This document shows, piece after piece, positions 3 through 20,731 of a DNA stretch of 47,097 nucleotides. The stretch comes from Promethearchaeota archaeon (GTDB taxonomy: Archaea > Asgardarchaeota > Lokiarchaeia > Sigyniarchaeales > SOKP01): the NCBI GenBank assembly GCA_048938445.1, contig JBHLME010000010.1, positions 1 to 47,097 of the forward strand, read 5' to 3'. Below the pieces are notes generated by a model. That model saw nothing but the letters and a program-made list of their open reading frames with translations, was not told the origin of the DNA and ran no database searches. The position numbers and the translations under genes were made by a program. Position 1 is the first letter of the stretch. Every line of letters begins with the position of its first letter.

Positions 3-461
3 AAAATGCATGTTGGAGGTGCTGCAAATCCAAATGCAGATCCTATGGAATCCGAAATTCTAAAAATAGGTAGAAAAGCAGAAGCTGGTTGTGAATTCAT
101 TCAAACACAAGTAGTTTATGATCTCGACAGAACTATTGAATTCTTGCAAGCTATTGGTAAATATAAAGTTCCAGTATTTCTTGGCATATCTCCAATGAAA
201 AGTTATGCGATTGCTAAAGGTTTTGACATGTTTGTTCCAGGTGTTGACGTGCCAAAAGATATTTTAGCACAGTGGAAGAGCGTGAAAACTGATATTACAG
301 ATAAAGTGCAACAAAAAGAAGCTTATGACCAATTAAACTATGAATTTTTCAAACCATTCATTACAGAGTTAAAATCAAAGAATTTATTAGCTGGAGTCCA
401 TTGCATGGCTGTTCACTATACAAGAATCTTTCCAAAATTAGTGGACGTCATAAAAGGATAA
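3..461 (+). CDS. metF: Methylenetetrahydrofolate reductase, C-terminal part (5'-truncated by window)
   Basis: Frame open from window edge; GGAANP, K..AGCEFIQTQVVYD and VPVFLGISP..S motifs of MTHFR. Confidence 0.85.
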   Translation, partial: KMHVGGAANPNADPMESEILKIGRKAEAGCEFIQTQVVYDLDRTIEFLQAIGKYKVPVFLGISPMKSYAIAKGFDMFVPGVDVPKDILAQWKSVKTDITDKVQQKEAYDQLNYEFFKPFITELKSKNLLAGVHCMAVHYTRIFPKLVDVIKG

Positions 462-646: not shown

Positions 647-1918
647 ATGAACGAGGAAATTGAAAAAAATATTAGATTTTTTAAATTGAGCTATTCAGGA
701 TTATTATTAGAACCCAAGGTAGACTCTGAGGAAGATAAATTAGAACTCTTTAATATAAATAATGTTATAGCAGTTCATGTGAAAGATAAAAAGCGAATGT
801 ATATTTGGGTTGGGAAGCATTCAACCCAAAGCTTACAATATTATATCTCCAAGATAAGAGCTATTATTTCTCGAGAATATTCTGATCTGGTAACGCTAAG
901 ATACATTCATACGGACTCAGGATCAGAAATCCCTGAATTTTTTGATTCTACAGAATTATCAAAAGATAAGTTACATGATCAATTGAAATTTCAAGAAAAA
1001 ATATTAGCACCAAAAGTATCCGAAATTAGTGATCTTAAAAATATGGCCGATGAGTACTTTATGGCCGAAGATTATGACAAAGTTATCGAAATTTCTCAAA
1101 AAATTATTGAATTGGCTGATGAGCTCGGAGATGAAGGACTTAAAAAAGATCAAAAAGAATTCATAAATGAAGCCCAACAAAGAGCTGGACTTAAAAAAAT
1201 AATGTTAAGTGCTGAGCAAGAATCTGAAGAAATCAATAAACAATTTATAGAACTTATCAATACTGATAAAATAATTGATGCTCACGACTTTATTAATGCT
1301 TTTAAATCGAAATATGAAGAAATTGATTTATCATCTATACCTAAAATTGATGAAATTCTTACGAATGAGAAACAAATTTGGAAGGCGTTTTTAACAAAAC
1401 AAGATGATCTAATTAATGAAATAAATGTTCTAGAAAAAAAAATTTTCACCTGCATTGAAAAACAGGATATTGCAGAAGCGGAAAAGAGTTTTAAGAAGGT
1501 TAAAGCTTTACTCGAGAAAATTATCGATGAAACAATACAAAATAAATGGAAAGACATTGAACAAACTGTTATGAAATCAAGAGCTGATTATGATGATATG
1601 ATCCAAAATTCGAAAAATACGGTTAAACAACTTCAGGAAATAATAAAAAAAAATGAAGAAAATAATGAATTAGAATTATTAATAGAAAATTGCCAGAATA
1701 TTATAACGCATTTAAAGTTAGTAAAGGATAATGCTTTACTAGATCAATATTCTCAATTACTAGAAGAATCACTAGAAAAAAAACGTCTAAACAATTTGGT
1801 AGAAGTTATTGATGATTTAAGAAAAGAAAGTAAGATAAAATTGAATGAAGGGAATTTAATTGAATGTTTAAAATATTATGATAAAATTCTAAATCAATTA
1901 AAGGATTTTATGAATTAA
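647..1918 (+). CDS. Gelsolin-like domain + helical/TPR-like repeat protein
   Basis: N-terminal RMYIWVGKHS...DSGSEIPEFF matches the gelsolin repeat consensus (YxWxGxxS...GxExxEF); remainder is charged helical-hairpin repeats paralogous to 1947-3746. Confidence 0.7.
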   Translation: MNEEIEKNIRFFKLSYSGLLLEPKVDSEEDKLELFNINNVIAVHVKDKKRMYIWVGKHSTQSLQYYISKIRAIISREYSDLVTLRYIHTDSGSEIPEFFDSTELSKDKLHDQLKFQEKILAPKVSEISDLKNMADEYFMAEDYDKVIEISQKIIELADELGDEGLKKDQKEFINEAQQRAGLKKIMLSAEQESEEINKQFIELINTDKIIDAHDFINAFKSKYEEIDLSSIPKIDEILTNEKQIWKAFLTKQDDLINEINVLEKKIFTCIEKQDIAEAEKSFKKVKALLEKIIDETIQNKWKDIEQTVMKSRADYDDMIQNSKNTVKQLQEIIKKNEENNELELLIENCQNIITHLKLVKDNALLDQYSQLLEESLEKKRLNNLVEVIDDLRKESKIKLNEGNLIECLKYYDKILNQLKDFMN

Positions 1919-1946
1919 TTACTATGATAAAAAAAGGTGAAACAAT

Positions 1947-3746
1947 TTGGAACCGAAAGATAACGAAAAACGATTAACTGAGGAAGAAAGAGCACAGATA
2001 AAAGCTCTTGAAAAGATTGATGAATTAATAATCGTTCAAAATAACCATTATATGTTGGGAGAATATGATGATGCAATTAAAATTACTGAAGAAATAATTG
2101 AACTTGCGAAAAAAGATAATTTGTTAGAACTTGTAAAAGAGCAAGAAGATTATATTCAACAGATGCTAGCTGCAAAAGATAAAAGTAAACGATTAGCTGC
2201 TCTTAAAGAATTAAGCGAAATGAAAAAGAAAAAAGTTATTGAATTATTAGAATCTGGAGAAATTTTGAAAGCACATGAAATTGTAGAAGATTTTAAGAAA
2301 GAATATGGTAATGAATTTAATTTGAAGAAAATTGCATCTGCAAGAACTTTCATTCAAAAAGAAGAAGATATATGGATTAAATTCATTAAAAAACAAGAAT
2401 CCTTGAAAGAAGAAATAAAGATTTTAGAAAAATTAATCATTAAAGCTAGAGATGAAAATGATATGATTGCACAGTCTAAAATCTTGGATCAAGCAAAACC
2501 TCTAGTTTTAAAGTACGTGATTGAGGATATAAATGAGAAATGGAGTATATATGAAAAGGAACATTCGGATTTTATAGGAATAATAAACGAAGAAATAGCG
2601 ATTTATGAAGAAAAATTTCTGGAAAATAAAGAAAATAATAAATTAAGCGCAGCAATTAATTATTGCGAAAAAATCATAGAAAACGCACAGAAGAGTGGTA
2701 ATGTAGAGGTCATAAATAAATTCACCCAAATAGTTCAAGATATGAAAAATCAGTTTGAAAGTCAAGCAAGCGAAAAAAATAAGATTCTAAAAGAAATACA
2801 AGAGAAGGCAAAACAACTTGAAAGCGCTATTAAGGTTGAAGAAAATACCCTCCCTCTAATCGAGGAATTTTCAATTAATGATCTCCTAGGTGACATTACT
2901 GGAGATATTAATGAGACATTAGATAAAATTGGAAATTTACTTAGTGAACACAGGGTTGAGATAAAGAAAGAAATTTCAAATAAAGCAGTTTTAAGATCTG
3001 CTTCGGGAGAAATTGTAGAATTCGATAAAGATATTGAAGTAAAAGAAGATAATGAAGAACCTACGAGTTATTCTGTCCAATCTGGATTTACTAATCCATT
3101 TGATGATATTATAGAAGAAGGTATTCTTACAGATCTCGTTCCATATAATTTTGAAATAACACAGGTTACTTATAATGGCGAATTGGTTCCTCAACTTCCT
3201 GATAAAAATTTAACCAAAGATGGTCTTGAAATAAATTGGAAATTAGAAAATATTCCCCCTAATGAAAAAGTAGAAGTTAATTATGATTTACGAAGACGTG
3301 TGTCTCGTACGATTATCTTCATACTTGAAAATCATTTAAAAATAATCAAAACACACTCAAATTTGAATTCTATCGATATTGAAGGATCTTATGACGTTAA
3401 AATTCCATTTACGAATTCATTTGGTTTAGTACTAAATGGAGTCGTAGTAGAAGATATAATCCCCCTATATTATCTTCACTTTGTAAAAGAACCTACAAAA
3501 CTTTTGCCTGCACCACCAACTAGCTCTAGTATGGGGGATTTAATAAAGTGGAATGTAGGTAAAATGGAAATGGAAACATTAAATTATCATTATCGACTCC
3601 TAGAAATTTATCGATTGGAAGAAATTAAAATTAAAGTTGATGAATTAGATACTAAAGGTGCTGAAGCTCTCAAGCAGGTAAATATTAACGAAGCCCTTCA
3701 TAACTTTGAGCAAATTAAGAATATTATTTCAAATTACCTTAAATGA
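1947..3746 (+). CDS. Helical-repeat protein with two tandem Ig-like beta-sandwich domains, no signal peptide
   Basis: TTG start 11 nt after GGTG Shine-Dalgarno; helical N-half similar to 647-1918; two internal repeats (TNPFDDIIEEGILTDLVP..INWKLENIPPNEKVEVNYDL / TNSFGLVLNGVVVEDIIP..IKWNVGKMEMETLNYHY) resembling DUF11/TRAP-beta-type Ig folds. Confidence 0.6.
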   Translation: MEPKDNEKRLTEEERAQIKALEKIDELIIVQNNHYMLGEYDDAIKITEEIIELAKKDNLLELVKEQEDYIQQMLAAKDKSKRLAALKELSEMKKKKVIELLESGEILKAHEIVEDFKKEYGNEFNLKKIASARTFIQKEEDIWIKFIKKQESLKEEIKILEKLIIKARDENDMIAQSKILDQAKPLVLKYVIEDINEKWSIYEKEHSDFIGIINEEIAIYEEKFLENKENNKLSAAINYCEKIIENAQKSGNVEVINKFTQIVQDMKNQFESQASEKNKILKEIQEKAKQLESAIKVEENTLPLIEEFSINDLLGDITGDINETLDKIGNLLSEHRVEIKKEISNKAVLRSASGEIVEFDKDIEVKEDNEEPTSYSVQSGFTNPFDDIIEEGILTDLVPYNFEITQVTYNGELVPQLPDKNLTKDGLEINWKLENIPPNEKVEVNYDLRRRVSRTIIFILENHLKIIKTHSNLNSIDIEGSYDVKIPFTNSFGLVLNGVVVEDIIPLYYLHFVKEPTKLLPAPPTSSSMGDLIKWNVGKMEMETLNYHYRLLEIYRLEEIKIKVDELDTKGAEALKQVNINEALHNFEQIKNIISNYLK

Positions 3747-3761
3747 TGTTACCATAAACAA

Positions 3762-5807
3762 ATGTCAGTTCCTTATAGTAAACCAATTATTTTTATTGCA
3801 TCTTGGAATAAGGAAATTGGAATTAAAATCGAAAATAATTTTCCTATATCGATTAACCTTGATTTGGAACAAATAGCAATGCAAATTTTTATCACTTATC
3901 AAAATTTCTTCTCTATTGAGGATAAAAACGAAATTAAACGGAGTTTTTTTGAAATTCCCATTAAAAATCTTATCAGAAAAGCAAAAATATTGATAGATTC
4001 TATTGTTGATGAGAGAAACAATGAAAAAATACCCTATATAGTGGTTATACTCTTTCCTGATTATATAATGGATAAAGTTATGGATAAATTTAATGATATT
4101 ATGGAACAAATAGGAACTGAATTTTTAAATAAGAATCTTATGCTTTTCTCTGATAAGTACGCAAAAATAACTGAATTACTATTATTGGAGCAGAAAGTAC
4201 AAGATAAAGAAATTATCATTAATGAGAATTATTCTTCAAATGATTCCGTACAAGACTTTAAGAAAGGAATAGAATTATTTTCAAAAAAGAGTTTCGAACA
4301 AGCATATTTTCTGATAAAAAAGGCCTTCTTAAAATTTAAAAGTGAAAATAATGTTAAACTTTTATTAGATTCTCTTTTCTTTATTGCTACCACATTATCA
4401 GAATTAAATAAATTTCAAGCAGCTCAAGAGTATTATGAAGAATTAGCATCATTAGCAAGTTCTTTAAACCATCAAAAATATCTTGAAACAGCTTTATTCA
4501 TGGTGGGTTTTTGTGCTTATAAAAGAGGAGAATATGAGGTTACTTTACAAAAATTCTCTTTATTAAATTCTTTAGATAAAAATTATATTAATAAATTTCA
4601 ATATTATTCCCTTTGGGGCCGAATTTTAAGATTAACAGGTCAATATGATAAATCCTTACAGAATTTGGAAAGTGCCCTTGATATTAGTGAAAAATTAGAG
4701 CTAACTCAAAAAGAAAAGGAAAATAAAGCTCAAATTATATTGGAAATGGGGCATATTCATTATAAAATGGCAATTGATGGTTTAAAAGCAAATTTCATTA
4801 TTAAAGATCAGTTTAATCCATATTTTCAAAATGCAATTAAATATTATGATGATGCTATAAGAATTTGGGAGGATTTAGAAAATTTTACTCGCCTTAAGAA
4901 TGTTTATCAACTAGTAGGAAATATATATGAAGTATTAAATGAGACAGATCGTGCAATCTCCTCCTATGATAAAGCGTTAAAGTATGCAGAAATGACCAAT
5001 GATGCATTAGGGAGGATGGAAATTTATAGTCTCATGGTTTATCAATATCAAAAGAATGAAGAATATGAAATCCTCATTAAATTTTTAGATGAAATACTCT
5101 CCAAATTAAGAGCATATGCTTTTATTGATCTTAATACCATTAGCAATTATCACATGCAACTTGGTAAATCTCTCATAAAGATTGGAAAGAAGAAAGAAGC
5201 CCTCTCAGAGTTATTAATCGCATTAAATATATACAATCAGTTTAAGTACCCTATTAAAGAAGGATTAGATACACTTCAAGAAATAATCAATATATATAAG
5301 CAAGATAATCAAGAAAATTATGTAAAATATTATGAAAAGCAATATAATGATTTGCTAGAGAAAATACAGAATTATAAAGCTCAACAAGCGATTTCTCTTA
5401 AATTTAGAATATTAAACATAATAAAAGAACTCTGGATTTTCACGAATGAAGGTGTTGAACTTTTATCAAGTGCTCCAGAATCAAAATTAAATCCTCAACT
5501 ATTTGGAGGTTTTATTTCTGCATTACAAGCTTTGAGTACTGAGCTCTCTTCAGAAAAATTAAGATCGGTCATGATAGGTTCATTTAAATATTCAATTTAT
5601 ACTGAGAAAGACTCTCCTATTTTCATCATTGGTAGATCAACATTACAAGCCAATACAAGTATTATTGAAAAAATTTTAAGAACTATTTTTCAAGAATTCT
5701 TGAAAAAATTTCACCCATTTTTAGAAGACTATGATGGAGACTCCTCGAGATTTCTAGTTTTTTTAAATACTATAGAAAAAATGACTGAAAAAGACCTTAT
5801 TTCTTAG
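3762..5807 (+). CDS. uDENN/longin - TPR - longin domain protein (paralog A)
   Basis: N-terminal IFIASWNKEIGIKI..FP longin-like strand; central TPR repeats; C-terminal LWIFTNEGVELL..NPQLFGGFISALQALSTEL..LRSVMIG longin signature. Confidence 0.7.
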   Translation: MSVPYSKPIIFIASWNKEIGIKIENNFPISINLDLEQIAMQIFITYQNFFSIEDKNEIKRSFFEIPIKNLIRKAKILIDSIVDERNNEKIPYIVVILFPDYIMDKVMDKFNDIMEQIGTEFLNKNLMLFSDKYAKITELLLLEQKVQDKEIIINENYSSNDSVQDFKKGIELFSKKSFEQAYFLIKKAFLKFKSENNVKLLLDSLFFIATTLSELNKFQAAQEYYEELASLASSLNHQKYLETALFMVGFCAYKRGEYEVTLQKFSLLNSLDKNYINKFQYYSLWGRILRLTGQYDKSLQNLESALDISEKLELTQKEKENKAQIILEMGHIHYKMAIDGLKANFIIKDQFNPYFQNAIKYYDDAIRIWEDLENFTRLKNVYQLVGNIYEVLNETDRAISSYDKALKYAEMTNDALGRMEIYSLMVYQYQKNEEYEILIKFLDEILSKLRAYAFIDLNTISNYHMQLGKSLIKIGKKKEALSELLIALNIYNQFKYPIKEGLDTLQEIINIYKQDNQENYVKYYEKQYNDLLEKIQNYKAQQAISLKFRILNIIKELWIFTNEGVELLSSAPESKLNPQLFGGFISALQALSTELSSEKLRSVMIGSFKYSIYTEKDSPIFIIGRSTLQANTSIIEKILRTIFQEFLKKFHPFLEDYDGDSSRFLVFLNTIEKMTEKDLIS

Positions 5808-5904
5808 ATTTTCCAAAATTTAAATAAATTTTTATAAGATTAGTATTATTTTGTAATAAAATTTAATTCACTAAAAATACCATTTACTAATTTAAGAGAT
5901 ATAC

Positions 5905-6861
5905 ATGCATTTAATGTTGATTACTTTTGATAGCCTTCTCGGTCCAAAAATTTATCTTACAGTACCGGATACAATATCAAATGAAAAATTGAAAGAGAGA
6001 ATTTCTGATTTTCTTAATTTAGATTTGGGGAAATCCTTTTTTGAAATTAATATAATCGAAGAAAGTTTAAAAACTTTCAATCTTTATATCGAAATCCCCT
6101 CAGAAATAGCAAGAGGGGGGATTGAAATGGCATTAATAAGTTTGATAACGGAAAAAAATTATAAAAGTTCATTATTTTATGATATATTAAAAGATACTCA
6201 AAAACAAATGTTAGAGGTAAAAGATCTTTATAAAGGATTTTATATGGATGATAAGATTTCAGATAGTCAAGTTGAGATTAAATATAAGGAACTTAAGAAC
6301 ATTTTAAATCAATCTTATGAAAAATGTGAAGGAGCAATTTCACATTCAACAATAGGGAATATATTAATTTTAGGAATAAATAAAGTAGGGAAAACATCGA
6401 TAATTAACCATCTTAAAGAAAAGAAGTTTTCTTCAAATATTAAACCCACATTAGCATTAACCTTAATAGAGCTGATTATTGACACTTATTTATTTAAAAT
6501 AGTTGATGTTGGAGGTCAGAAAAGATTAAGAAATCAATGGTGGTCATATACATCATCACCTGATGCTATAGTATTTGTTTTTGATGTAAATGATAAGGGA
6601 GAACGCTTAGATGATACAAAAGAAGAATTCTTAAAGATTCTCGCAAAGTTATCAACAAAATTAGAAAAGTTACCTATATTAATATGTGCTAATAAAATGG
6701 ATTTAGCTTCAGATAAAATTGATTTGGATTATTTTAAAGAGTTATTAATTCCAAAACAAGTAAAGCTTAACTATAAGTTACAGTTAACGAGTGCTATTTC
6801 AGGGGAAGGACTAGGAGATGGATTTAAATGGCTTGTCAAGAATTTAATGGAAATTTCATAA
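5905..6861 (+). CDS. uDENN/longin domain fused to Arf-family small GTPase
   Basis: G1 GINKVGKTS, G2 KPT, G3 DVGGQKRLRNQW (Arf-type), G4 NKMD, G5 TSAISGEG; N-terminal ITFDSLLGPKIYLTVP is a uDENN/longin beta-1 motif. Confidence 0.85.
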   Translation: MHLMLITFDSLLGPKIYLTVPDTISNEKLKERISDFLNLDLGKSFFEINIIEESLKTFNLYIEIPSEIARGGIEMALISLITEKNYKSSLFYDILKDTQKQMLEVKDLYKGFYMDDKISDSQVEIKYKELKNILNQSYEKCEGAISHSTIGNILILGINKVGKTSIINHLKEKKFSSNIKPTLALTLIELIIDTYLFKIVDVGGQKRLRNQWWSYTSSPDAIVFVFDVNDKGERLDDTKEEFLKILAKLSTKLEKLPILICANKMDLASDKIDLDYFKELLIPKQVKLNYKLQLTSAISGEGLGDGFKWLVKNLMEIS

Positions 6862-6894
6862 ATTATAGAATTAATAAGTTTATCGTGGGTAAAG

Positions 6895-8958
6895 ATGGTT
6901 TCAAATAATTCGGATAATATAAAAAAAACTTCAAATATTCTTATCTTTATATCTATTTGGGATGAAGAAGTAGGCCCAACTATAGTGGATATCCATCCAA
7001 GGGTAAATATAGGGAATATTGAACAAATAACAATTCAAATTTTTCAAGCATATCAATTTTTTTGGGATTCTCCTGATAAACCTTATAATAGAGCAAAAAT
7101 GGTCTTGCCATTTAGAAATATCAACAAAAAAGCAAAAATCTTCTTTGATATCATTCCTAATCCCGATATTCGAGGAGGATTTCAACCTTTTAATGTTGTA
7201 ATACTTTGTCCTGATTATTTTTCCGATGAAAACTTATACATTTATGATGAGATTATGCTTAAAATTTCAAAAGACTTTGCCAAGCAACAAAATATTCGCC
7301 TTGAAAACTACTATCAGGAAGTTTATGATTTACTTGCATTAGAAGAAATTAATAAAAATGAGCCTGTTGAATTGGAAGATAATTATTCATATACAATTGC
7401 TATGGATGACTTTCAAGCAGGAATAAAATTATTTCAAACAAGAAATTATAAAGAAGCGTATAATTTATTAAAGAAAGTCCTGATAAAGTTTGAGCAAGAA
7501 AACCATAGAAACCTAATAATGGAAGTAGTGTATCTCATTGCATCCTTATTAGCTCAGCAAAAAGAATTCAACAATTCATATGAATTCTTTTCAAGATTAG
7601 AAAGTCTTTCAATTGAATTAGAACATCAAAAATACTTGGAAATAAGTAGATTTATGAAAGGATTCTGTGCATATAAAAATGAAAATTTCGTTGAAGCATT
7701 GGAGAACTTGAAAAAAATTGAAATTTTATCATCACAAAATATCAATAAAATACAATATTTTATGATGCATGGAAATATCCTCCAACAATTTAAACGATTA
7801 GAAGAGTCCCTAATCTCCTATAAAAATGCATTAGATTTAATACATAATTCACCTCAAATAGATAAATTAAGAAAACAACAAGCACACATACTATACGAAA
7901 TTGGCTATGTACACTATAAAATTGCCGTGCAAAACCTTAGGAATTTAGGATTGGATAAAATGCAAGATAATGAAACCAACTTTAATGAAAGTATAAGGTA
8001 TTTAGATGAATCTGTAAAAATTTTAACAAAATTAAATGATTACGATTTTTTAATCCAAGTATATCAGTTAATAGGAACAATTTTCGAACTTTTAGGTAAT
8101 ATGGATAATTCCATTTATTATTTTAAAGAAGCAATGGATCTAGCAATGAAAAACAAGAGATTTGGAAAGAAGCTAACAATCATTACTAAATTGATTCAAA
8201 AACAAGCTGAATTGGAAAAACATGAAAAGAATGTTAAAATTATCGAAAATTTATTGAAAGAAATTGATAATCTCAAACTAGTAGATTTACATACAATCGC
8301 TACTTTTCATGTTAAGTTAGGAGAATCTTTAATTAAAATTGGAAATAAAGAAAAGGGAATTAAGGAAATGATAGAAGCACATGAAATTTTTAAAACCTTC
8401 CAAACACCTGTATATAATGATCTCCTATTATTATCCCAAATTGTGAACTTCTTCACAGAAATAAAAGATTTTGAAAAAGTAACTTATTATGGAGAAGAAA
8501 TCAATAAAATCTCAAAAGAACTTCATGAATTTTCAATCCAAAAACCAAAATTATCCTCTCCATTGCATACTATCGGAGAAATATGGATTTATTCAACTTC
8601 TACGGGGGTTACATTATTTAGCTATGCTCCTGAGACTCAAGTCGATCAAGACCTCCTCGGAGGTTTTTTAACAGCAATACAGCAATTCAGTTTAGAACTA
8701 TCGCAAAAAGAATTCGATTCCATGGTAATTGGTAATGATTTATTTATGTTTTATAAAGAACCTAACATGGAATTTGCTATATTTGGCAAAGCAAGTAACA
8801 AGACACCCCCAGAACTAGCAAAAAGAATATTGACTATTATATATAAGAGATTTTGGAAAGAATATGCTCCCTCAATAAATGATTTTAAGGGGGATATTAC
8901 TCCATTTATCACTTTCAAAGATATCATTGAATCTCTTGATTTAACATTAGAAATGTGA
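6895..8958 (+). CDS. uDENN/longin - TPR - longin domain protein (paralog B)
   Basis: ISIWDEEVGPTIVDIHP longin start; collinear with 3762-5807 over the full length; C-terminal IWIYSTSTGVTLFSY..DQDLLGGFLTAIQQFSLEL. Confidence 0.7.
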   Translation: MVSNNSDNIKKTSNILIFISIWDEEVGPTIVDIHPRVNIGNIEQITIQIFQAYQFFWDSPDKPYNRAKMVLPFRNINKKAKIFFDIIPNPDIRGGFQPFNVVILCPDYFSDENLYIYDEIMLKISKDFAKQQNIRLENYYQEVYDLLALEEINKNEPVELEDNYSYTIAMDDFQAGIKLFQTRNYKEAYNLLKKVLIKFEQENHRNLIMEVVYLIASLLAQQKEFNNSYEFFSRLESLSIELEHQKYLEISRFMKGFCAYKNENFVEALENLKKIEILSSQNINKIQYFMMHGNILQQFKRLEESLISYKNALDLIHNSPQIDKLRKQQAHILYEIGYVHYKIAVQNLRNLGLDKMQDNETNFNESIRYLDESVKILTKLNDYDFLIQVYQLIGTIFELLGNMDNSIYYFKEAMDLAMKNKRFGKKLTIITKLIQKQAELEKHEKNVKIIENLLKEIDNLKLVDLHTIATFHVKLGESLIKIGNKEKGIKEMIEAHEIFKTFQTPVYNDLLLLSQIVNFFTEIKDFEKVTYYGEEINKISKELHEFSIQKPKLSSPLHTIGEIWIYSTSTGVTLFSYAPETQVDQDLLGGFLTAIQQFSLELSQKEFDSMVIGNDLFMFYKEPNMEFAIFGKASNKTPPELAKRILTIIYKRFWKEYAPSINDFKGDITPFITFKDIIESLDLTLEM

Positions 8959-8998
8959 CCATCAACTATTTAGATTTCTTTAACCAATTTAATTTTAG

Positions 8999-10909
8999 AT
9001 GGTTGAAAAAAATATTAATTCAATTGGACAAGTTTTTACTCCAGATTACATCGCTGAATTTATGGTAAAGAACGCCTTAAATTTCATCCCTAATAAAAAG
9101 TTAAAAGTTTTGGAACCATCAGTAGGAGAGGGTGTATTCTTAAAATATTTAATCCAATATAATATCATAGATATAACTGCTTATGAAATAGATTATAAAT
9201 TAGGTCTTAAACTTTCACTGGAATATCCCAATGTGCTTTTTAAATTTGAAAATTTTTTAAGTGCAGATAGTTCTGAAAAGTTTGATCTAATCATTGGTAA
9301 TCCTCCATATTTAGGACAAAACTATAATGCTGAGATATTCCAAGAATATGTAAAACAATTTCCCATATGTGCTAAATATTTTGTTGGAAATATGGATTTG
9401 TTTTATTTTTTTATCCACCAAGCAATAACAATGCTCAAACCAAGTGGAATACTTTCATTTATCACGACAAACTATTGGATTACAAAATCTAAAAAAACTG
9501 GAATAAAATTATTGAAACCCCACATATTAGAAGAATGTTTCTTACTCCAATATATCGACTTATCAGATTTAAAGTTATTTAAAAATGCTAAAGGACAACA
9601 TAACTGCATTTTTATCCTTGAAAAAAAAACTCTTGAAGAAAAAAGCAAGAATGTGAATAAAAATATAGACATAATCAAAGTATTTAGTAATCATAGGATT
9701 GATACCAATGATCAAGATTCAAATAAAGAAATTTTTCGAGATTTACTTGAAGAAAATTGCTCTAACAATGTAGTTCACTATGAATCTGCTTTGACGAACA
9801 ATGAATTGAGTCGATTGGGTAACTGGAATTTACTTAATCCTGAGGATGTAAAAAATATGGTTAACAAACTCGAAAAATTCTGCATTAAAAATGGAAAAAT
9901 CCAATACCTGAAAGATTATTTTCTTATTCGAAATGGTATTATTTTCATACAAGATGATATTTTCATATTAAAAAATGATGAAAATCTACAGATTAAAGGT
10001 AAAGAATTCTTTGTTAGAATAGATAATCAATACTATAAACTTTCTGAAAATGAAAAAAAAAGATTGAAAAAAATTTATAAGAGCAAGGCCATAAAACCAT
10101 TTGGACTGAATAAAAATGATTACGTAGGATATGGGATATTCTTTAATAAAAAGGAATTTAATCAATTTAAACCAGAAATTAGAAACGAGAAATATCAAGA
10201 GAAGTACCCAATTCTAACAGCATATTTAAAACAATTTGAAGAAATTTTAAATAACATACTAATAAATGCTAAGGAAAATCCTTTAGATTTGTTTTTCCCA
10301 AGAAGGGGCGCCTTTATCAAGTATAAAAGTGAGAATTCCCTTGAAAAAATTATCGATGTAGAACCATTATATGAAAATGCCCCAAAAATCTTTTTCAAGT
10401 TTATTTCTTCTAAAAATCTTTTTGGATTTTCTAATGGCCCCTATTATGCAACATCAGATACATACTTTCTTTGGTCTAAAGTCCCAGCTAAAAAACTTGA
10501 TTATCCTTTCCTTCTAGCTTATTTAAACTCAAAAATAGTAGATTTCTTATTTAAAGCAAAAAACATTACTATTAAAAGAAGTAAAACAAAACTCGAATAT
10601 GGATTACCAATACCAAATTTGGACCTATTTAATTCTGAAGAAGAGTTATCAATATTGACAATAATAAGAGTTCTTTCAAATTACTTAATATATCTAGATA
10701 ATATAGATTTTAATGTAGAAACTATTAGAACATTAACAGCTTTACCCAATATCTTGGAAATAGATTATGAAAACTTAAAAATTCAGCTTATTTATGCTAT
10801 CAAAAATAAAGATAGGAATTTTATTGTTAAAATCATTGACCTACTCTTTTTTCATTTGTTTAAGTTAGACCAAAGTAAAATTAATTATCTCGAAAAAAAG
10901 TATTACTAA
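8999..10909 (+). CDS. N6-adenine DNA methyltransferase (gamma class, TaqI/Eco57I-like)
   Basis: GQVFTP motif X, VLEPSVGEG motif I, IIGNPPY motif IV, C-terminal TRD-like region ending in LLAYLNS. Confidence 0.9.
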   Translation: MVEKNINSIGQVFTPDYIAEFMVKNALNFIPNKKLKVLEPSVGEGVFLKYLIQYNIIDITAYEIDYKLGLKLSLEYPNVLFKFENFLSADSSEKFDLIIGNPPYLGQNYNAEIFQEYVKQFPICAKYFVGNMDLFYFFIHQAITMLKPSGILSFITTNYWITKSKKTGIKLLKPHILEECFLLQYIDLSDLKLFKNAKGQHNCIFILEKKTLEEKSKNVNKNIDIIKVFSNHRIDTNDQDSNKEIFRDLLEENCSNNVVHYESALTNNELSRLGNWNLLNPEDVKNMVNKLEKFCIKNGKIQYLKDYFLIRNGIIFIQDDIFILKNDENLQIKGKEFFVRIDNQYYKLSENEKKRLKKIYKSKAIKPFGLNKNDYVGYGIFFNKKEFNQFKPEIRNEKYQEKYPILTAYLKQFEEILNNILINAKENPLDLFFPRRGAFIKYKSENSLEKIIDVEPLYENAPKIFFKFISSKNLFGFSNGPYYATSDTYFLWSKVPAKKLDYPFLLAYLNSKIVDFLFKAKNITIKRSKTKLEYGLPIPNLDLFNSEEELSILTIIRVLSNYLIYLDNIDFNVETIRTLTALPNILEIDYENLKIQLIYAIKNKDRNFIVKIIDLLFFHLFKLDQSKINYLEKKYY

Positions 10910-10943: not shown

Positions 10944-11993
10944 ATGTTTCCAAAGTATGATGATGTGGGAAGTTTTCCCTTACCAAATAACATTGACAGA
11001 GAAGCTTTTAAGCAATTTTATTGGACGGCTTATAAAGGGCTTGTGAATAAATCAGATATATTTGGACATAGGGGAATTAATAACTATTTCATTCAACCTT
11101 TTCTAAACTCTTTCAAGCTAAAGTTAAAAGCAGGAGTTGAGATAATTAATTTTCCTCAACAAATGGATATTTATAACCAATTTTTAAAACCTATTAGTGA
11201 TTATGAAATAGAACCCGGTTTGATTTCACCTGACAAAGCATATATCCTTGAAATGATTGTGCTGAGCAATTATGCAAGAGAATACTATGAAACAGAAAAA
11301 AAACCACTTGAAGTTAAGATGTGCATTACTGGACCATTAGAATTATATCTTAAGAATCATGGTTTTACCATTTACGTAGATATGGCCTTGAATTATGCAA
11401 GATCTATTAATAGTTATCTTAAAAATTCCATCATCAACAACGAATATATAAAAACTCCATTAATATCTATCGATGAGCCCTCACTTGGTTATGTTGATAT
11501 GGCTAATGTAAGCAATGATGAAATTATTCAAATTTTTGATAAATCTTTAGAGGGAATAAACTCAACCTCTCAAATCCATCTCCACACGTTAAATCTTGCT
11601 TCAGTGGCTTTACAAACGAGCAATATAGATGTATTGACATGCGAATATGCTTCAGATAAAACCAACAAAATACCAAAAAAAGAATTAGATCAATATGATA
11701 AATTTATGCGAGTTGGTATTACAAGGACTAATATAAATAGCATTATGGCTGAAGCATTAGATTCGGGAATGGATTATGATAAAATAAATACTTACGAAGG
11801 TACAATGAGTTTAATAGATTCAGAAGAAAGAATTGAAAAAAACCTGAAAGATGCTCTAAATCATTATGGAGATCGTTTAAAATATGTAGGGCCTGATTGT
11901 GGAGTGGCGAGTTGGGCTCCACCCCAAATTGCTTTTGAATTACTTAGTAGAACAGGGAAAGTTATTCAACATGTTAAGGAAACTTCTCATTAA
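10944..11993 (+). CDS. Single-domain (core) cobalamin-independent methionine synthase family protein
   Basis: DDVGSFP start, ITGP, ISIDEP, HLH...E and GPDCG metal-site motifs of the MetE catalytic barrel. Confidence 0.75.
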   Translation: MFPKYDDVGSFPLPNNIDREAFKQFYWTAYKGLVNKSDIFGHRGINNYFIQPFLNSFKLKLKAGVEIINFPQQMDIYNQFLKPISDYEIEPGLISPDKAYILEMIVLSNYAREYYETEKKPLEVKMCITGPLELYLKNHGFTIYVDMALNYARSINSYLKNSIINNEYIKTPLISIDEPSLGYVDMANVSNDEIIQIFDKSLEGINSTSQIHLHTLNLASVALQTSNIDVLTCEYASDKTNKIPKKELDQYDKFMRVGITRTNINSIMAEALDSGMDYDKINTYEGTMSLIDSEERIEKNLKDALNHYGDRLKYVGPDCGVASWAPPQIAFELLSRTGKVIQHVKETSH

Positions 11994-12790: not shown

Positions 12791-15007
12791 ATGATGGCGG
12801 AAGATAAAGGTGGAATAAAGAGCCGAAAAGTAAGAGTAAAAGATGCTCTTAAAGAAGATGCTGGAAGGGGAAGGATAAGAATTGATCCGAACGTGATAAA
12901 TGATCTAAATTTAAAAAATGGAGATGTTATACAGATTGTTCACCCCATTTTAAAAAAAGATACAGCTGCGTTATTATATCCGGGAAAATCTGAGGACGTA
13001 GGATCAAACACCATACGAATTGACCAATCTCTCCGGAGAAATTTAGGAGCATCGCTTGATGATATCGTGGAAATACGCAAGATTAAAGCAAGTGAAGCTA
13101 CAAAAATAACTTTTGCAGGATTGGAAGAAACAGTAATCGTGAGAAATACCCAACAATTAGCGCAAAAATTAGAAAATAGGGTAATTACTAAGGATGACAT
13201 ATTAAGTTTTTATGCCATGGGTCGAAGAGTTGACCTTATAGTTGTTGACTATTTCCCAAAAGCTGAAGCAGTTAGGATTCTTTCCACTACTAAAATATAT
13301 CTTTCAGAAAAGAGTCATAGGGAAATTAAAGAATTAGAAAAATCAAGAGTTACTTATGAGGATATCGGAGGTTTAGCCGAAGAAATCCAAAAAATTCGGG
13401 AAATGATCGAGCTTCCTATAAGACACCCTGAATTATTTAAAAGAATCGGCATAGATCCTCCTAAAGGAGTTTTATTACATGGTCCTCCAGGAACGGGTAA
13501 AACTTTATTAGCAAGAGCAGTTGCTTATGAAACTGATGCTCATTTTATAACTATTAGTGGTCCAGAAATAATGAGCAAGTTTTATGGTCAAAGTGAAGAA
13601 AATTTACGTAAAAAATTTGAAGAAGCAAAAGAAAGAGCGCCATCAATCATTTTTATAGATGAATTAGATTCAATTGCCCCTAAAAGGGGAGAAGTAACAG
13701 GTGAAGTCGAGCGAAGAGTTGTAGCGCAATTACTTTCCTTGATGGATGGATTAGAAGGAAGGGGTGAAATAATCGTGATAGGTGCAACCAATAGAGTTAA
13801 CGATATTGATGCTGCTTTAAGAAGACCTGGACGATTTGACCGAGAAATTGAAATAGGGGTTCCCGATACTGATGGAAGATATGAAATATTGTTGATTCAT
13901 ACCAGAGGAATGCCATTGTATAAAGATGTTGTTCTTCAAACAATTGCCGAAAAAACTCACGGTTTTGTAGGTGCCGATGTTGAAGCACTAGCAAAAGAAG
14001 CAGCCATGCTCTCAATTCGAGAAATCTTACCCCATATTGACCTAGATAAACCAATTCCCGCTGAAGTTTTAAGCGATATTCAGATAAAAATGGCCCATTT
14101 TCAATCTGCATTAAGCAATATAGAGCCTTCCGCTTTAAGAGAAGTTTTAATAACCCAACCAACTGAAACTTGGGATGATGTTGGTGGTCTTGAAGAAGCT
14201 AAACAACAACTTAGAGAAGTAATTGAATGGCCCTTAAAATATCCAGATTTATATAAACATTTAAATTCAAATCCACCGAATGGGATTTTACTATATGGTC
14301 CTCCTGGAACGGGTAAAACACTAATAGCAAAAGCATTGGCTCATGAAAGCGAAATTAACTTCATTTCTGTTAAGGGTCCAGAATTTTTATCAAAATGGGT
14401 AGGTGAGAGCGAAAAGGCAGTAAGAGAAACATTCAGAAAAGCAAGAGCAGCATCACCTTGCATAATATTCTTTGATGAAATTGATGCTATTGCAGGACTG
14501 AGGGGTGCACATGCAGGATCCCAAGTCACGGAGCAAGTGGTCTCACAATTATTGACAGAAATGGATGGTTTGGAAGGATTAAAGGACGTTATCTTGTTAG
14601 CGGCAACCAATCGACCTGATATGCTTGATCCTGCTTTATTAAGATCGGGAAGATTTGGCAGACATGTAGAAATTCCATTGCCAGATAAGGAATCTAGAGA
14701 ATTAATTTTTAAAATTCATTTTAAAAATAGACCTATGCACAATGAAGTAAAATTTGAAAAATTAGCTGAAGAATTAGATGGTTATACAGGAGCTGATATA
14801 GAAGCTATTGCGGAAGAAGCAACCTTATTGACAATTCGAGATGCGGTTGCCAATCCATCTATAGATACATCAGATCCTGAATCAGTTAAAGATGTAAAAA
14901 TTACAAAGGAATCAATAGATAAATCAATTAGTAAAATAAAAGGAACTGCTGACAGGGCAATGAAGGCGATTAAGCGAACGGAATCGGTAGAGGATCTCTA
15001 TCGATAA
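12791..15007 (+). CDS. cdc48: CDC48/VAT family AAA+ ATPase
   Basis: N domain, two AAA modules each with GPPGTGKT Walker A and FIDE/FFDE Walker B, SRH motifs; C-terminal LYR HbYX-type tail. Confidence 0.97.
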
Positions 15008-18439: not shown

Positions 18440-20731
18440 TTAATTTTTCTTTAGAACCGGTGATTCTTGAGTTTTTAAAATGGGTAAGGTAAAGAAAAAT
18501 TTAGATCCCTTATTTCTTCCATGAGATTCCGCCCACATTTTTCCACCATGCAACTTGATGATTTTTTTTGAATTATACAAGCCCAAACCCAAACCATCGA
18601 TCCCTACATCCCATTCTTTCCCATATCTTTCAATTTTACCAAATCTTCTAAATAATTGCTTGCTTTCATCTATAGTTATTCCAATTCCATTATCTTCGAC
18701 TGAAATTATATAATATCCTTCTTCAATACTAGATTTTACTTTAATTAAACCATTTGGAGGGGTATATTTTATCGCATTTATAATTAGATGTGAAATGACT
18801 TTATAAATATCTTCTTTTATAATTTCGACATTAATGTTTTCAGCGATATCAACGATTATTTTCAAATTTCTGGCTTTTGCTAAACCCTGAAGTTCATTAA
18901 CACAAAAATTAATTAAGAATGAAAGATTTTGCTTAGTTTTTTTAATACTGATACCATTAGATTTTAATTGTGAAGTTTTTAAGAGGTTATTTACTATTAA
19001 TGCTAATCTATTAGCCCCTTCATTTATTTCCTTCAAAATAGATAGGACTTCATCATCAAATTTATCTGCATGTAAGTCTAATAAAAGATCTGCAAATCCT
19101 TTTATAGAAATTAGGGGTGTATTTAGTTCATGTGATGTTCTTTTAATCAATTCAGATTTTAAATTGCTGACTTCTCTTAATTCTTGTTCAGTTTGTTTTT
19201 TATCGGAGATATCTATTATGGTGATCAGTATTGCATGTTTTTCTTGATACATTATGGGTTTTGCAGATATTTCTATCCATTTTTCATCTCCCTTCCCTGT
19301 TTTTATTTTAAAAGGGAAACTTTCTATTGATTTAATATTACCATTAATAAAATTATCTATTAAGCTTAAAAATAAATTATAATCTTGAGAATTAAGGAGA
19401 CTGCGATAATCATTACATGTCCAATTCCTTCTTATATCGAAAGTATAACCCAGAATTAAATCAATGGCTTTATTTGCGTATTTCACTTTATTATCTTGTA
19501 GTATGGCAACTCCAATTTCCGTTTCTTCAGCAATAGTTCGAAATTTTTCTTCAGATTCTCTTAATTTTTGTTCTGCTTTTCTGTGTTCTGAAATATCAAT
19601 TGTGGTTGAAATTAAATATGGTTCATTATTAAGATTTATAATTTCTGCTGATAGGAGCATCAATAATCTCTCTCCCGATTTGGTAACTGCTTCCGCTTCA
19701 AAATTTTTAATTCGACCTTGTTCCTTCAATATTCTTACCATTTCACGTCTTTGTTCAGGATTTGCCCAAATATTTAATTCTGAGGTTGTTTTTCCAATAA
19801 GTTCATCTATATCATAACCTAAAACTTGTTTAAAGGCATCGTTAGCATTAATAAATCGACCTTCATTTAAACTTACTATCGACATTAAATGAGGACTAGA
19901 CTGGAAAGCTTTTGATAGTTTTTCTTCAGATTCTCTTAAACTTTGTTCAGCTTTTTTTTTTTTGGTAATATCTTGAATTATTGCTTGAAAGTAATCTTGT
20001 TCTCCAACTTTTATGAAGGATATTGACGATTTAATAATTGAGATATTTCCATCTTTTTTTTTTATTTTCAATTCTAATGGTTCTAAATCATGCTTTTTAG
20101 TTATATTTTGAAACCTCTCTTTTAATGTATGAACATTGTCCTCCGAATAAAAAGGTAAATCCAAATAGTTTTGACCAATTAATTCCTTAATAGAATAACC
20201 AAAAATTCTCTCAGTGACAGAATTACACTCAATAATTTTTCCTGTAAGATCAAGCAATATAATAGCATTTGAGGACTTTTCAAATATATTTCTATATTTC
20301 TCTTCAGATTCTCTTAATTTTTGTTCTGTCTTTTTTCTTGCTGTAATATTTTCTCCAGAGCTCAAAGTTCCAATAATATTTCCATTCTCATCATGTAATA
20401 ATGTATTGTGCCAAGCAATTAGTTTTTCTGTTCCATTTTTGGTAATTATGGTATTTTCATGAAATTCTTCAGATTCAACCAAACCTCGCATAATTGTGCC
20501 AAAAACTTTCTTAACTTCTTCTCTATTGTGTTCAGGAAGGCATGTATCAAACCAATTCTTACCCAATAGTTCTCCTTCTTCATATTCAAGAATTTCATGA
20601 CCTTTTTTATTTAATAACATTATATTTCCATTTCTATCAAGAGCTAACAATACAACTCCCGCAATATCTAGATATTGTTTTTCATTTCTTACTTCCAATA
20701 ACCCTTGATCAAGCTCATTCAAAATTACCAA
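18440..20731 (-). CDS. Soluble sensor histidine kinase with four PAS domains
   Basis: Four PAS/PAC repeats ending (D/N)I(T/S); H box SHELNTPL, N box NAIKY, DNGIG and GLGLGL G boxes; no TM. Confidence 0.92.
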   Translation of the reverse strand: MVILNELDQGLLEVRNEKQYLDIAGVVLLALDRNGNIMLLNKKGHEILEYEEGELLGKNWFDTCLPEHNREEVKKVFGTIMRGLVESEEFHENTIITKNGTEKLIAWHNTLLHDENGNIIGTLSSGENITARKKTEQKLRESEEKYRNIFEKSSNAIILLDLTGKIIECNSVTERIFGYSIKELIGQNYLDLPFYSEDNVHTLKERFQNITKKHDLEPLELKIKKKDGNISIIKSSISFIKVGEQDYFQAIIQDITKKKKAEQSLRESEEKLSKAFQSSPHLMSIVSLNEGRFINANDAFKQVLGYDIDELIGKTTSELNIWANPEQRREMVRILKEQGRIKNFEAEAVTKSGERLLMLLSAEIINLNNEPYLISTTIDISEHRKAEQKLRESEEKFRTIAEETEIGVAILQDNKVKYANKAIDLILGYTFDIRRNWTCNDYRSLLNSQDYNLFLSLIDNFINGNIKSIESFPFKIKTGKGDEKWIEISAKPIMYQEKHAILITIIDISDKKQTEQELREVSNLKSELIKRTSHELNTPLISIKGFADLLLDLHADKFDDEVLSILKEINEGANRLALIVNNLLKTSQLKSNGISIKKTKQNLSFLINFCVNELQGLAKARNLKIIVDIAENINVEIIKEDIYKVISHLIINAIKYTPPNGLIKVKSSIEEGYYIISVEDNGIGITIDESKQLFRRFGKIERYGKEWDVGIDGLGLGLYNSKKIIKLHGGKMWAESHGRNKGSKFFFTLPILKTQESPVLKKN
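19548..20328. repeat. 28-bp direct repeat encoding the inter-PAS linker (19548-19575, 20301-20328 exact; 19923-19950 with 3 mismatches)
   Basis: TCTTCAGATTCTCTTAATTTTTGTTCTG read at both positions; encodes EQKLRESE. Confidence 0.8.

Follow-up and report, generated by a model that had tools for sequence, protein, structure and literature searches.

A conserved gene cluster of a Promethearchaeota archaeon joins an Arf-type GTPase with candidate longin regulators and gelsolin-type rod proteins

A stretch of 47,097 nucleotides from a Promethearchaeota archaeon (GenBank assembly GCA_048938445.1, contig JBHLME010000010.1, positions 1 to 47,097; hereafter the window) carries a cluster of five genes, g1-g5. 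They encode two rod-like proteins (g1 and g2), two proteins with a longin domain at each end of a tetratricopeptide repeat (TPR) solenoid (g3 and g5) and, between the latter two, a fusion of a longin domain with an Arf-family GTPase (g4). The best-supported core of the cluster is g3-g4-g5; motifs and modelling suggest that it forms a switch of the Arf type whose dedicated longin regulators belong to the GTPase-activating protein (GAP) class. On balance we favour, with modest confidence, the fuller reading in which this switch and its longin regulators, probably GAPs, are genetically coupled to the actin-type scaffolds g1 and g2. The cluster is real and conserved; the list of its parts given in the original prediction is essentially right, but the single five-part complex proposed there is only partly supported. 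The assembly carrying the window has a size of 4.6 Mb and a GC content of 28%, and the closest protein relatives of the window genes are labelled Promethearchaeota (Asgard).

The product of g4 (5905-6861, on the + strand like the other four genes; 318 amino acids (aa)) is an Arf-type GTPase with intact G1-G5 motifs, as had been proposed. Pfam Arf (PF00025) matches aa 152-313 with 116.6 bits (E 1.1e-33, cut-off 22.3), while Ras and Gtr1_RagA reach 51.6 and 33.8 bits. The GTPase domain (6358-6843) includes the P-loop (aa 157-164), switch I (approximately aa 178-186) and the DVGGQ motif (aa 201-205). Across an alignment of 29 sequences all G motifs are kept: GxxxxGK[ST] of G1 (G157/G162/K163), the switch-I threonine (T182), DxxGQ (D201/G204/Q205), NKxD (N263/K264/D266) and SA (S296/A297). 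The N-terminus is formed by a longin domain of 148 residues (5905-6348), with neither the Arf amphipathic helix nor a myristoylated Gly2, and g4 is thus considered an Arf-type switch but not a canonical membrane-anchoring Arf. It is known from Zhu et al. that the N-termini of Asgard Arf proteins (AArf) can be longin domains. In a structure search of the Atlas, the N-terminal domain of g4 (g4_N) matched the eukaryotic SMCR8/Folliculin (PF11704) and NPR2 (PF06218) clusters at template modelling (TM) scores of 0.75-0.77, a level sufficient for naming it a longin of the FLCN/SMCR8/NPRL2 type and in agreement with the longin-Arf label given to g4 earlier; further matches included Avl9, uDENN clusters of the FLCN/SMCR8 type and many stand-alone Promethearchaeota proteins. 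It carries an FDxxxGP motif (aa 8-14; nt 5926-5946) and an invariant R70-G71 (nt 6112-6117), and is followed by the Arf domain and not by a C-terminal DENN module.

The proteins on both sides of g4, g3 (3762-5807, 681 aa) and g5 (6895-8958, 687 aa), are paralogous over their full length (32% identity, E 3e-117). The AlphaFold2 (AF2) model of g3 (predicted local distance difference test score, pLDDT, 86.2) has the longin topology, beta-beta-alpha-beta-beta-beta-alpha, at aa 9-122 (3786-4127), approximately 13 helix pairs at aa 159-545 and a second domain of longin topology at aa 556-655 (5427-5726). The fold of the N-terminal domain was seen in this model of the paralog, and the same domain of g5 (g5_N) is a putative longin by homology. 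The solenoids were recognised by Pfam in both g3 (4236-5396; TPR_2 4e-14, TPR_12 2e-13) and g5 (7435-8550; TPR_12 2.8e-12, and homology to g3), and with the whole g3 model Foldseek retrieved TPR proteins only (LGN, BBS4/8, OGT). The profile of the C-terminal longin, located at 8551-8955 in g5, matched MON1 LD1 (E 5.2e-4) and TRAPP Bet5 (0.0041) among PDB sequences, and a stand-alone paralog of this domain in the window genome came close to Pfam Fuz_longin_1 (25.6 bits, cut-off 26.1). The profile of g3_N and g5_N gave nothing meaningful among PDB sequences. The longin-TPR-longin label proposed for the two proteins was largely right, based on the AF2 topology of g3 and the MON1 and Bet5 matches. 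The N-terminal longins of both proteins continue into the TPR repeats and not into a C-terminal DENN module.

The motifs of the N-terminal longins of g4 and g5 relate them to eukaryotic GAPs of the longin type. According to PMC12290439, the longins with GAP function (FLCN, NPRL2, SMCR8 and C9orf72) are distinguished by a GP motif, which is located in the turn between beta1 and beta2 beside the arginine finger and is reported there as absent from the DENND, TRAPP and adaptin longins, and in C9orf72 the essential W33-D34 pair stands just before G38-P39. Stand-alone Asgard longins share the GP motif and the arginine, their client GTPases being left open in that source. PMC8213707 reports that R147 of SMCR8 points at the nucleotide of ARF1 and that the W33G/D34K substitution in C9orf72 nearly abolishes the ARF1 GAP activity. 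All 22 homologs of g4_N, both stand-alone and fused, have [FY][DNH]xxxGP followed by R-G about 62 residues later. In g5 the corresponding motif is WDEEVGP (W22-D23...G27-P28; 6958-6978), which belongs to the WDxxxGP pattern found in 14/14 proteins of the g5 type with the same spacing as in C9orf72; RGG follows about 71 residues after the tryptophan in 12 of 16 of them, and in g5 it is R93-G94-G95 (7171-7179), a candidate arginine finger acting in trans. The g3-type proteins keep the tryptophan (13/13), the aspartate in 6/13 and the proline in 1/13, and have no RGG (0/13); g3 itself has WNKEIGI in place of WDxxxGP. The g3 clade was monophyletic and derived in a quick maximum-likelihood tree (Shimodaira-Hasegawa-like approximate likelihood ratio test, SH-aLRT, 99), the careful search being unfinished. 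Since single-copy homologs of a distant family also have WDxxxGP, this pattern is the ancestral one; g5 has kept the motifs and g3 has lost them, so the two look like a catalytic/degenerate pair comparable to NPRL2/NPRL3 and FLCN/FNIP.

One pair, g4 with g5_N, was modelled as a complex from g4 (28-row alignment), GTP, Mg and g5 residues 1-162 (16-row alignment). The interface score ipSAE (interaction prediction score from aligned errors) was 0.66 (0.68, 0.63 and 0.66 in the individual runs), with 0.00 for the best of three controls; at least 98% of the contacts agreed between the runs, and the pLDDT of the partner was at least 78. In this model g5_N would sit on the P-loop (g4 residues 159-160), switch I (178-186) and switch II (205-208 and 211, including Q205) of g4, contacting them through its residues 22-29 (WDEEVGPT), 92-95 (IRGG) and 98 and its first helix (alpha1). 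As the predicted contact matches the way in which the C9orf72-SMCR8 longins cup ARF1, stimulation of GTP hydrolysis on g4 seems to be the most likely activity of g5. The arginine might be supplied in trans by g5 R93, in cis by g4 R70, or by both, and g3 would probably act as a non-catalytic partner similar to FNIP or NPRL3. At their C-termini, g3 and g5 probably dimerise through the Mon1/TRAPP-like longins, and the resulting platform could operate as a guanine nucleotide exchange factor (GEF)-like site or as a second GTPase-binding site, and the TPR solenoids may serve as spacers or scaffolds.

Another possibility is that the N-terminal longins of g5 and g3 are not GAPs, but exchange factors or effector/platform domains for g4 in the style of MglB, Mon1-Ccz1, TRAPP or DENN. 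Most longin/roadblock platforms are GEFs or dual regulators according to Tran et al. (PMC10933270), and the predicted interface is centred on switches I and II, to which GEFs also bind. However, the GP motif of g5 is the one reported as specific to GAP longins, the WD pair next to it is required for the GAP activity of C9orf72, and the predicted interface also includes, next to GP, a loop with Arg-Gly, so this explanation appears quite improbable.

Several points weigh against the reading of g3-g5 as a switch with GAP-class regulators. Four of 16 orthologs lack the arginine of g5, which would also suit the exchange-factor explanation. The g4:g5_N job used its own alignments and ligands, unlike the calibration in which the same mark was reached by 116/157 solved complexes and 2/215 mismatched pairs, and its score may partly reflect the solved C9orf72-SMCR8-ARF1 complex. 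Furthermore, the predicted contact of g5_N is with the GTPase domain of g4 and not with the longin of g4, so that the model contains no heterodimer of two longins. The fold call for g4_N rests on the ESM model of the Atlas; its profile had no match among PDB sequences, and Pfam NPR2 or Folliculin was found in 0/22 of its homologs at E up to 1. No Pfam longin, NPR2 or Folliculin domain was detected in g3-g5. The alignment of g4_N with g3_N by hhalign was marginal (E 0.033, probability 1.5%); those of g4_N with the C-terminal longin of g3 and of the two g3 longins with each other gave nothing.

The g3-g5 core resembles several known systems. With the C9orf72-SMCR8-WDR41 (CSW) complex it shares two longins of the same superfamily around an Arf-family GTPase, one longin with GP and arginine (R147 in SMCR8; R70 of g4 or R93 of g5 here), identical WDxxxGP spacing and contacts, here predicted, with switches I and II and the P-loop (PMC8213707, PMC12290439). 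Unlike CSW, the cluster has no DENN domain and no WDR41; its longins are joined to a TPR solenoid and to a further longin of the Mon1-like kind, the GTPase itself carries a fused GAP-type longin, and g5 unites WD, GP and the arginine loop in a single domain, its GAP activity being a candidate one. The pairing of a longin bearing GP and an arginine finger with a degenerate one, as in g5 and g3, mirrors GATOR1 (NPRL2-NPRL3) and FLCN-FNIP, to which NPR2 and Folliculin among the structural neighbours of g4_N and a Rag/Gtr1-type GTPase in the cluster of one relative also relate; the client here, in contrast, is of the Arf type by Pfam, the genes are operon-like and archaeal, and DENN, the C-terminal domains specific to NPRL2 and DEPDC5 are lacking. 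In their C-terminal longin g3 and g5 match MON1 LD1 and Bet5 and share the longin topology of the Mon1-Ccz1 and TRAPP cores, which are Rab GEFs; in contrast to the tri-longin or TRAPP assemblies, it is a single longin that ends a TPR protein.

Motifs and predicted folds place g4_N, and putatively g5_N, in the Asgard class of GP-motif longins; both have GP and then arginine in common with the FLCN/SMCR8-type longins (Traffic 2025, PMC12290439) and the NPRL2-like longins (Liu et al. 2020) of Asgard archaea. Those are described as stand-alone proteins or two-component fusions, with the client GTPase left open in these sources, while here an Arf GTPase bears one such longin as a fusion and has another encoded beside it, with a predicted active-site interface. 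The architecture of g4 was already reported among the Asgard longin/roadblock-GTPase fusions (PMC10933270; PMC11914678), for which no cognate regulator is described in these papers. In MK-D1, according to Tran et al. (PMC10933270), GTPase genes are generally not in operons with longin genes; unlike this pattern, several lineages have a longin-TPR-longin gene on either side of the GTPase gene of the present cluster.

The longin of the g5_N type is widespread. Among 1.84 billion proteins, 282 family representatives were found at E up to 1e-3, and 40 of them, in which the domain is not at the start of a protein of approximately 680 residues, were picked for scanning. An Arf domain directly precedes the longin in 19 of these 40 architectures; many of the Arf-longin proteins run on into PAS, GAF and histidine-kinase ATPase (HATPase) domains, and others are receiver (REC)-longin or kinase-linked proteins. 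The W[DH]xxxG and RGG motifs were kept in 10/10 fused or partner domains examined. The window genome (G000; its contigs are denoted C, and the loci of relatives L) encodes a protein of 949 aa, longin-Arf-g5_N-type longin-PAS-PAS-HATPase_c (G000:C177:12865-15714 (-), the same as L033:4869-7715). Here the GTPase module forms part of a sensor kinase, and similar proteins, the longest with 2317 aa, occur elsewhere (P0119). REC domains fused to a g5_N-type longin with W[DH]xxxGP and RGG are encoded at G000:C46:1845-2735 (+), G000:C247:12275-13195 (-) and L062:1904-2875 (-); the last gene is divergent and adjoins a cluster of g3, g5 and GTPase genes, which hints at two-component input.

Thus, the cluster might be a signalling or nutrient-sensing switch, as known for GATOR1 and FLCN, wired to two-component systems rather than a trafficking or actin device, with a signal reported or relayed through the state of the GTPase and scaffolds binding signalling partners. 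The frequent fusions of g5_N-type longins to receiver, PAS/GAF and histidine-kinase ATPase domains, including those of the window genome (C177, C46, C247), the divergent REC-longin gene beside the L062 cluster, the Rag/Gtr1-type GTPase in the place of g4 in L053 and the NPRL2-like longins fused to two-component domains in the preprint of Liu et al. (bioRxiv 10.1101/2020.10.19.343400) all agree with it. On the other hand, the window cluster itself has no PAS, histidine kinase or REC gene and holds a gelsolin-type protein, and in L. ossiferum a 38.1-kDa 'Arf' and five gelsolins were reported to co-precipitate with Lokiactin (PMC13716822). A mass of 38.1 kDa fits the size of a two-domain Arf, which may or may not be orthologous to g4. 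We regard the signalling explanation as unlikely; it differs from the Arf switch coupled to actin-type scaffolds in the output alone, and the two are compatible.

The scaffolds in question, g1 (647-1918, 423 aa) and g2 (1947-3746, 599 aa, with a TTG start behind GGTGA), form the second paralog pair of the cluster, both pairs having been recognised in the original prediction. Their similarity covers about 250 helical residues (aa 127-374 of g1 and 24-265 of g2; 28% identity, BLASTP E 1e-20). In g1 a gelsolin-homology domain (aa ~8-105; 668-961) precedes a helical rod (992-1915), which is paralogous to the N-terminal half of g2 and gave only weak TPR matches. The N-terminal domain is assigned to the gelsolins by homology, as supported by profile matches to ProGel, adseverin, 2DGel and villin: in a search of PDB with a profile of 14 homologs, adseverin matched with E 5.3e-5 and the Asgard (Thorarchaeota) ProGel (7c2f_B) with E 6.5e-5 over its full length, and matches to Loki 2DGel (0.018), Heimdall 2DGel, gelsolin, villin and fragmin were also obtained, eight more gelsolin/villin/fragmin chains besides adseverin and ProGel being among the 19 listed. 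The gelsolin label given to g1 earlier therefore stood at the profile level (E 5e-5), although the Pfam Gelsolin (PF00626) cut-off was reached neither in g1 nor in its orthologs (no gelsolin match in 37 orthologous proteins, in which one sub-threshold longin match was seen); a distant, cluster-linked homolog has 18.2 bits at a cut-off of 21. Compared with the known Asgard gelsolins (ProGel, 2DGel and GelX; PDB 7c2f, 7whg), g1 differs in having one gelsolin domain with a helical rod of 300 residues, joined by a double beta-sandwich in most orthologs, and in staying below the Pfam cut-off.

The protein g2 consists of a helical rod, a double beta-sandwich and a helical hairpin. Its helical half (1947-2846) has weak internal repeats in self-comparison by hhalign, offset by about 65 residues (E 0.005 and 0.044). 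The all-beta module (aa 342-553; 2970-3605), with two sandwich-like halves, shows the strongest conservation within the cluster, and the AF2 model of the C-terminal half (pLDDT 90.4, predicted TM score 0.83) has about 16 strands and then the hairpin. An Ig scaffold had been proposed for g2; the all-beta sandwich was seen in the model, and 'Ig-like double beta-sandwich' appears to be a fair description, but this half has no close solved relative and is not assignable to any named family. No PDB structure matched the model above background in Foldseek or VIA, including a wide VIA search that was dominated by matches to the C-terminal hairpin; an arrestin-like fold is absent from the structure match lists, which does not exclude it, and a profile search of PDB sequences gave nothing meaningful. 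DUF11 (PF01345) was rejected, as it matched one homolog only (19.6 bits, cut-off 24.6), and the Atlas leads were below the bar. In most relatives both rod proteins bear the beta-sandwich, one having about 770 aa (gelsolin, rod, sandwich; the g1 orthologs) and the other about 660 aa (rod, sandwich), so that g1 of the window, having no C-terminal sandwich, is a shortened version.

The window genome contains two further gelsolin-rod loci, G000:C141:10608-14540 (-), with proteins of 914 and 344 aa, and G000:C221:6356-9388 (+), with proteins of 297 and 707 aa and a beta-sandwich; no longin-TPR or GTPase gene lies beside either of them. Actin homologs are also encoded in this genome (best 424 bits). 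In three relatives a conserved protein of 660-770 aa is encoded directly upstream of the gelsolin-rod genes (L044:3170-5473 (+), L053:285-2261 (+), L054:2-289 (+)) and has a weak match to Pfam Adap_comp_sub, that is, mu-homology (E 0.007, 16.2 bits, cut-off 31.6). Its paralogs in the window genome are located elsewhere, on C105, C23, C48 and C177, the last (C177:5789-7924) being approximately 5 kb from the GTPase-kinase fusion.

The gene neighbourhood was compared in 41 genomes of relatives, 6 loci from GTDB genomes and 15 metagenome loci, with duplicate loci merged (L046 = L015; L076 = L044; L055 close to L043; L058 close to L059). The tight co-oriented run extends past g5 through g6, a DNA methyltransferase gene, and g7, a MetE-like gene, to approximately 17.5 kb, so spacing and orientation cannot delimit a five-gene unit, which is delimited by comparison with relatives only. 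Of 17 loci informative for the 5' side of g3, 14 have a beta-sandwich gene as the immediate neighbour there, often at a distance of tens of bases, whereas L015, L048 and L062 do not. The g3 and g5 genes are adjacent, or separated only by one or more GTPase genes, in 11 of 18 loci, and four more contigs end directly after the GTPase gene. In 10 of 18 informative loci the g3-g5 block includes a GTPase gene or adjoins one: it is located between g3 and g5, or right after g3 before the contig end, in the window, L048 (two copies), L049, L053, L056, L057, L058/59 and L061, and directly after g5 in L051 and, on the opposite strand, in L062. The slot of g4 in L053 is occupied by a Rag/Gtr1-type GTPase of 308 aa (8916-9842 (+); Pfam Gtr1_RagA 1.1e-27). 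In six loci g5 follows g3 directly, with no GTPase gene nearby (L015, L032, L044, L045, L047, L054); an insert of 4 kb with three unrelated ORFs (open reading frames) separates g3 and g5 in L050 (12013-16075), and L043 has neither GTPase nor g5. The best g4 orthologs from whole genomes (36% identity) are arranged tail to tail with a gene for a protein of 318-333 aa that starts with a g5_N-type longin (WDxxxGP, RGG). The g3 ortholog in L049 (3044-5090) is broken into three ORFs, owing to sequencing error or decay.

The beta-sandwich family is present in 87 of 301 sampled genomes of the phylum, and 15 of its loci were fetched, 13 of them from lineages outside the close relatives of the cluster. 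In family f26 the beta-sandwich gene is followed by a gene for an N-terminal longin with TPR in 4/4 loci, with a gelsolin-like gene within 5 kb in two of them. In family f9 an Arf-type GTPase gene adjoins the beta-sandwich gene in 2/4 loci, one of which also has a protein ending in the C-terminal type of longin; five other loci showed the beta-sandwich gene alone. The expectation of a conserved gene order was borne out, as linkage is kept across many Promethearchaeota contigs, but it is modular, and the GTPase gene is beside the block in the 10 loci only.

Such modularity would be expected if the cluster consisted of two independent modules lying side by side, g1-g2 acting on the cytoskeleton or another structure and g3-g5 forming a GTPase-regulator system, with no five-part complex. 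In the nearest relative, of the same genus (L013), g1-g2 are kept at 68% identity and are followed by a broken g3 remnant and then by g6 and g7, with g4 and g5 lost. In one genome (G013) a g1/g2-type pair (L016) and a g3/g5 pair (L015) are on separate contigs with unrelated flanks; L048 and L062 have g3, the GTPase and g5 without an upstream beta-sandwich gene, and the gelsolin-rod loci of C141 and C221 stand without g3-g5. Against it are the beta-sandwich gene upstream of g3 in most informative loci and, in distant families, its position next to a longin-TPR (f26) or Arf (f9) gene, since genes that recur as neighbours in deeply diverged lineages are usually linked in function. Separate modules are considered rather unlikely. 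Two observations also count against the favoured coupling of switch and scaffolds: 8 of 18 loci have no GTPase gene beside g3/g5, and L013, having kept g1-g2 but lost g3-g5, suggests that g1-g2 can function without the switch. The stop-riddled g3 remnant of L013 (4941-5918, G004:C366), located between g2 and the methyltransferase gene, looks like the result of a recent deletion or decay of g3-g5. The tie of g1 and g2 to g3-g5 is genetic only, appearing strong as adjacency, and of the single cytoplasmic complex proposed originally for all five proteins, the interface of g4 with g5_N passed a controlled prediction, but the linkage is modular and g3-g5 are lost in L013, and a complex of all five is at most a candidate.

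Under the favoured coupling, judging from the gelsolin homology and the conserved adjacency only, g1 and g2 would most likely tie the switch to Lokiactin filaments or to another surface. A more far-reaching proposal is a self-contained archaeal Arf machine, in which GAP N-terminal longins and a GEF-like dimer of Mon1/TRAPP-type C-terminal longins would be assembled on TPR solenoids, and rods would have a gelsolin end on Lokiactin and a mu-homology-like double beta-sandwich binding cargo or lipid; it could be a precursor of the adaptor/COPI coat logic (longin, solenoid, mu-homology domain and Arf) or of the Arf-actin coupling in crawling motility. We consider this proposal highly doubtful.

Fusions of longin and GTPase domains (PMC10933270; PMC11914678; Liu et al.), NPRL2/FLCN-type longins of Asgard archaea that have GP and arginine (PMC12290439) and Asgard gelsolins are already in print. 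In full-text searches of the literature, with the supplements of PMC11914678 and PMC12290439, which may list relatives, lying outside the search, we found neither the cluster of gelsolin-rod, beta-sandwich, longin-TPR-longin and longin-Arf genes, nor WDxxxGP in an archaeal longin, nor a matched Arf client for the Asgard GP longins. Apparently, therefore, the cluster itself and the match of a regulator to its GTPase have not been described, and the earlier statement that the combination was not known as a system agrees with this. In PMC11914678 the native regulators of AArf are stated to be unknown, and two CSW-like candidates are reported to be without Arf-binding regions. The locus thus offers an in silico answer to two questions left open in these sources, on the clients of the Asgard GP longins (PMC12290439) and on the native regulators of Asgard Arf proteins (PMC11914678), and is a testable candidate for the regulation of an Arf-like switch in archaeal relatives of eukaryotes. 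If this is true, the GAP design with two longins, known from the complexes of C9orf72, folliculin and GATOR1, would be older than eukaryotes and accessible to testing with four small soluble archaeal proteins. The conserved coupling to gelsolin-rod proteins would also tie an Arf switch to the actin cytoskeleton of Asgard archaea, for which a motility phenotype is now reported (PMC13716822).

Pfam and NCBIfam recognised only TPR and Arf in g1-g5, and no gelsolin, longin or Ig domain was found by Pfam in any of the five, the gelsolin, longin and beta-sandwich calls resting on profile, structure and motif evidence. The five co-oriented ORFs are separated by 28, 15, 97 and 33 bp, within the range of 15-97 bp given initially. 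No transmembrane helix or signal peptide is evident in g1-g5, in line with the first description, because no segment of 19 residues exceeds a Kyte-Doolittle value of 1.66, which is reached within the GTPase core. In independent DNA runs (short contigs), the junctions g1/g2 and g4/g5 are spanned by exact contigs and g2/g3 by a diverged one; for g3/g4 no bridging record was present among the independent DNA records listed, and the listing contained no RNA run.

The cluster is flanked by genes of one-carbon and methionine metabolism, as a fragment of MTHFR (methylenetetrahydrofolate reductase; 6-461 (+), Pfam 2.9e-12) is located 5' and the MetE-like methionine synthase g7 (10944-11993 (+), NCBIfam PRK06052, 5.7e-70) is located 3' of it. 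Between the cluster and g7, 40 bp after g5, g6 (8999-10909 (+)) encodes an Eco57I/TaqI_C-type N6-adenine DNA methyltransferase (Pfam Eco57I 8e-21), whose ortholog in L013 comes after the g3 remnant (63% identity); it is weakly similar to PglX of BREX. Farther downstream, a double AAA ATPase similar to CDC48/VCP (12791-15007 (+)) and a multi-PAS histidine kinase (18440-20731 (-)) were recognised by eye only.

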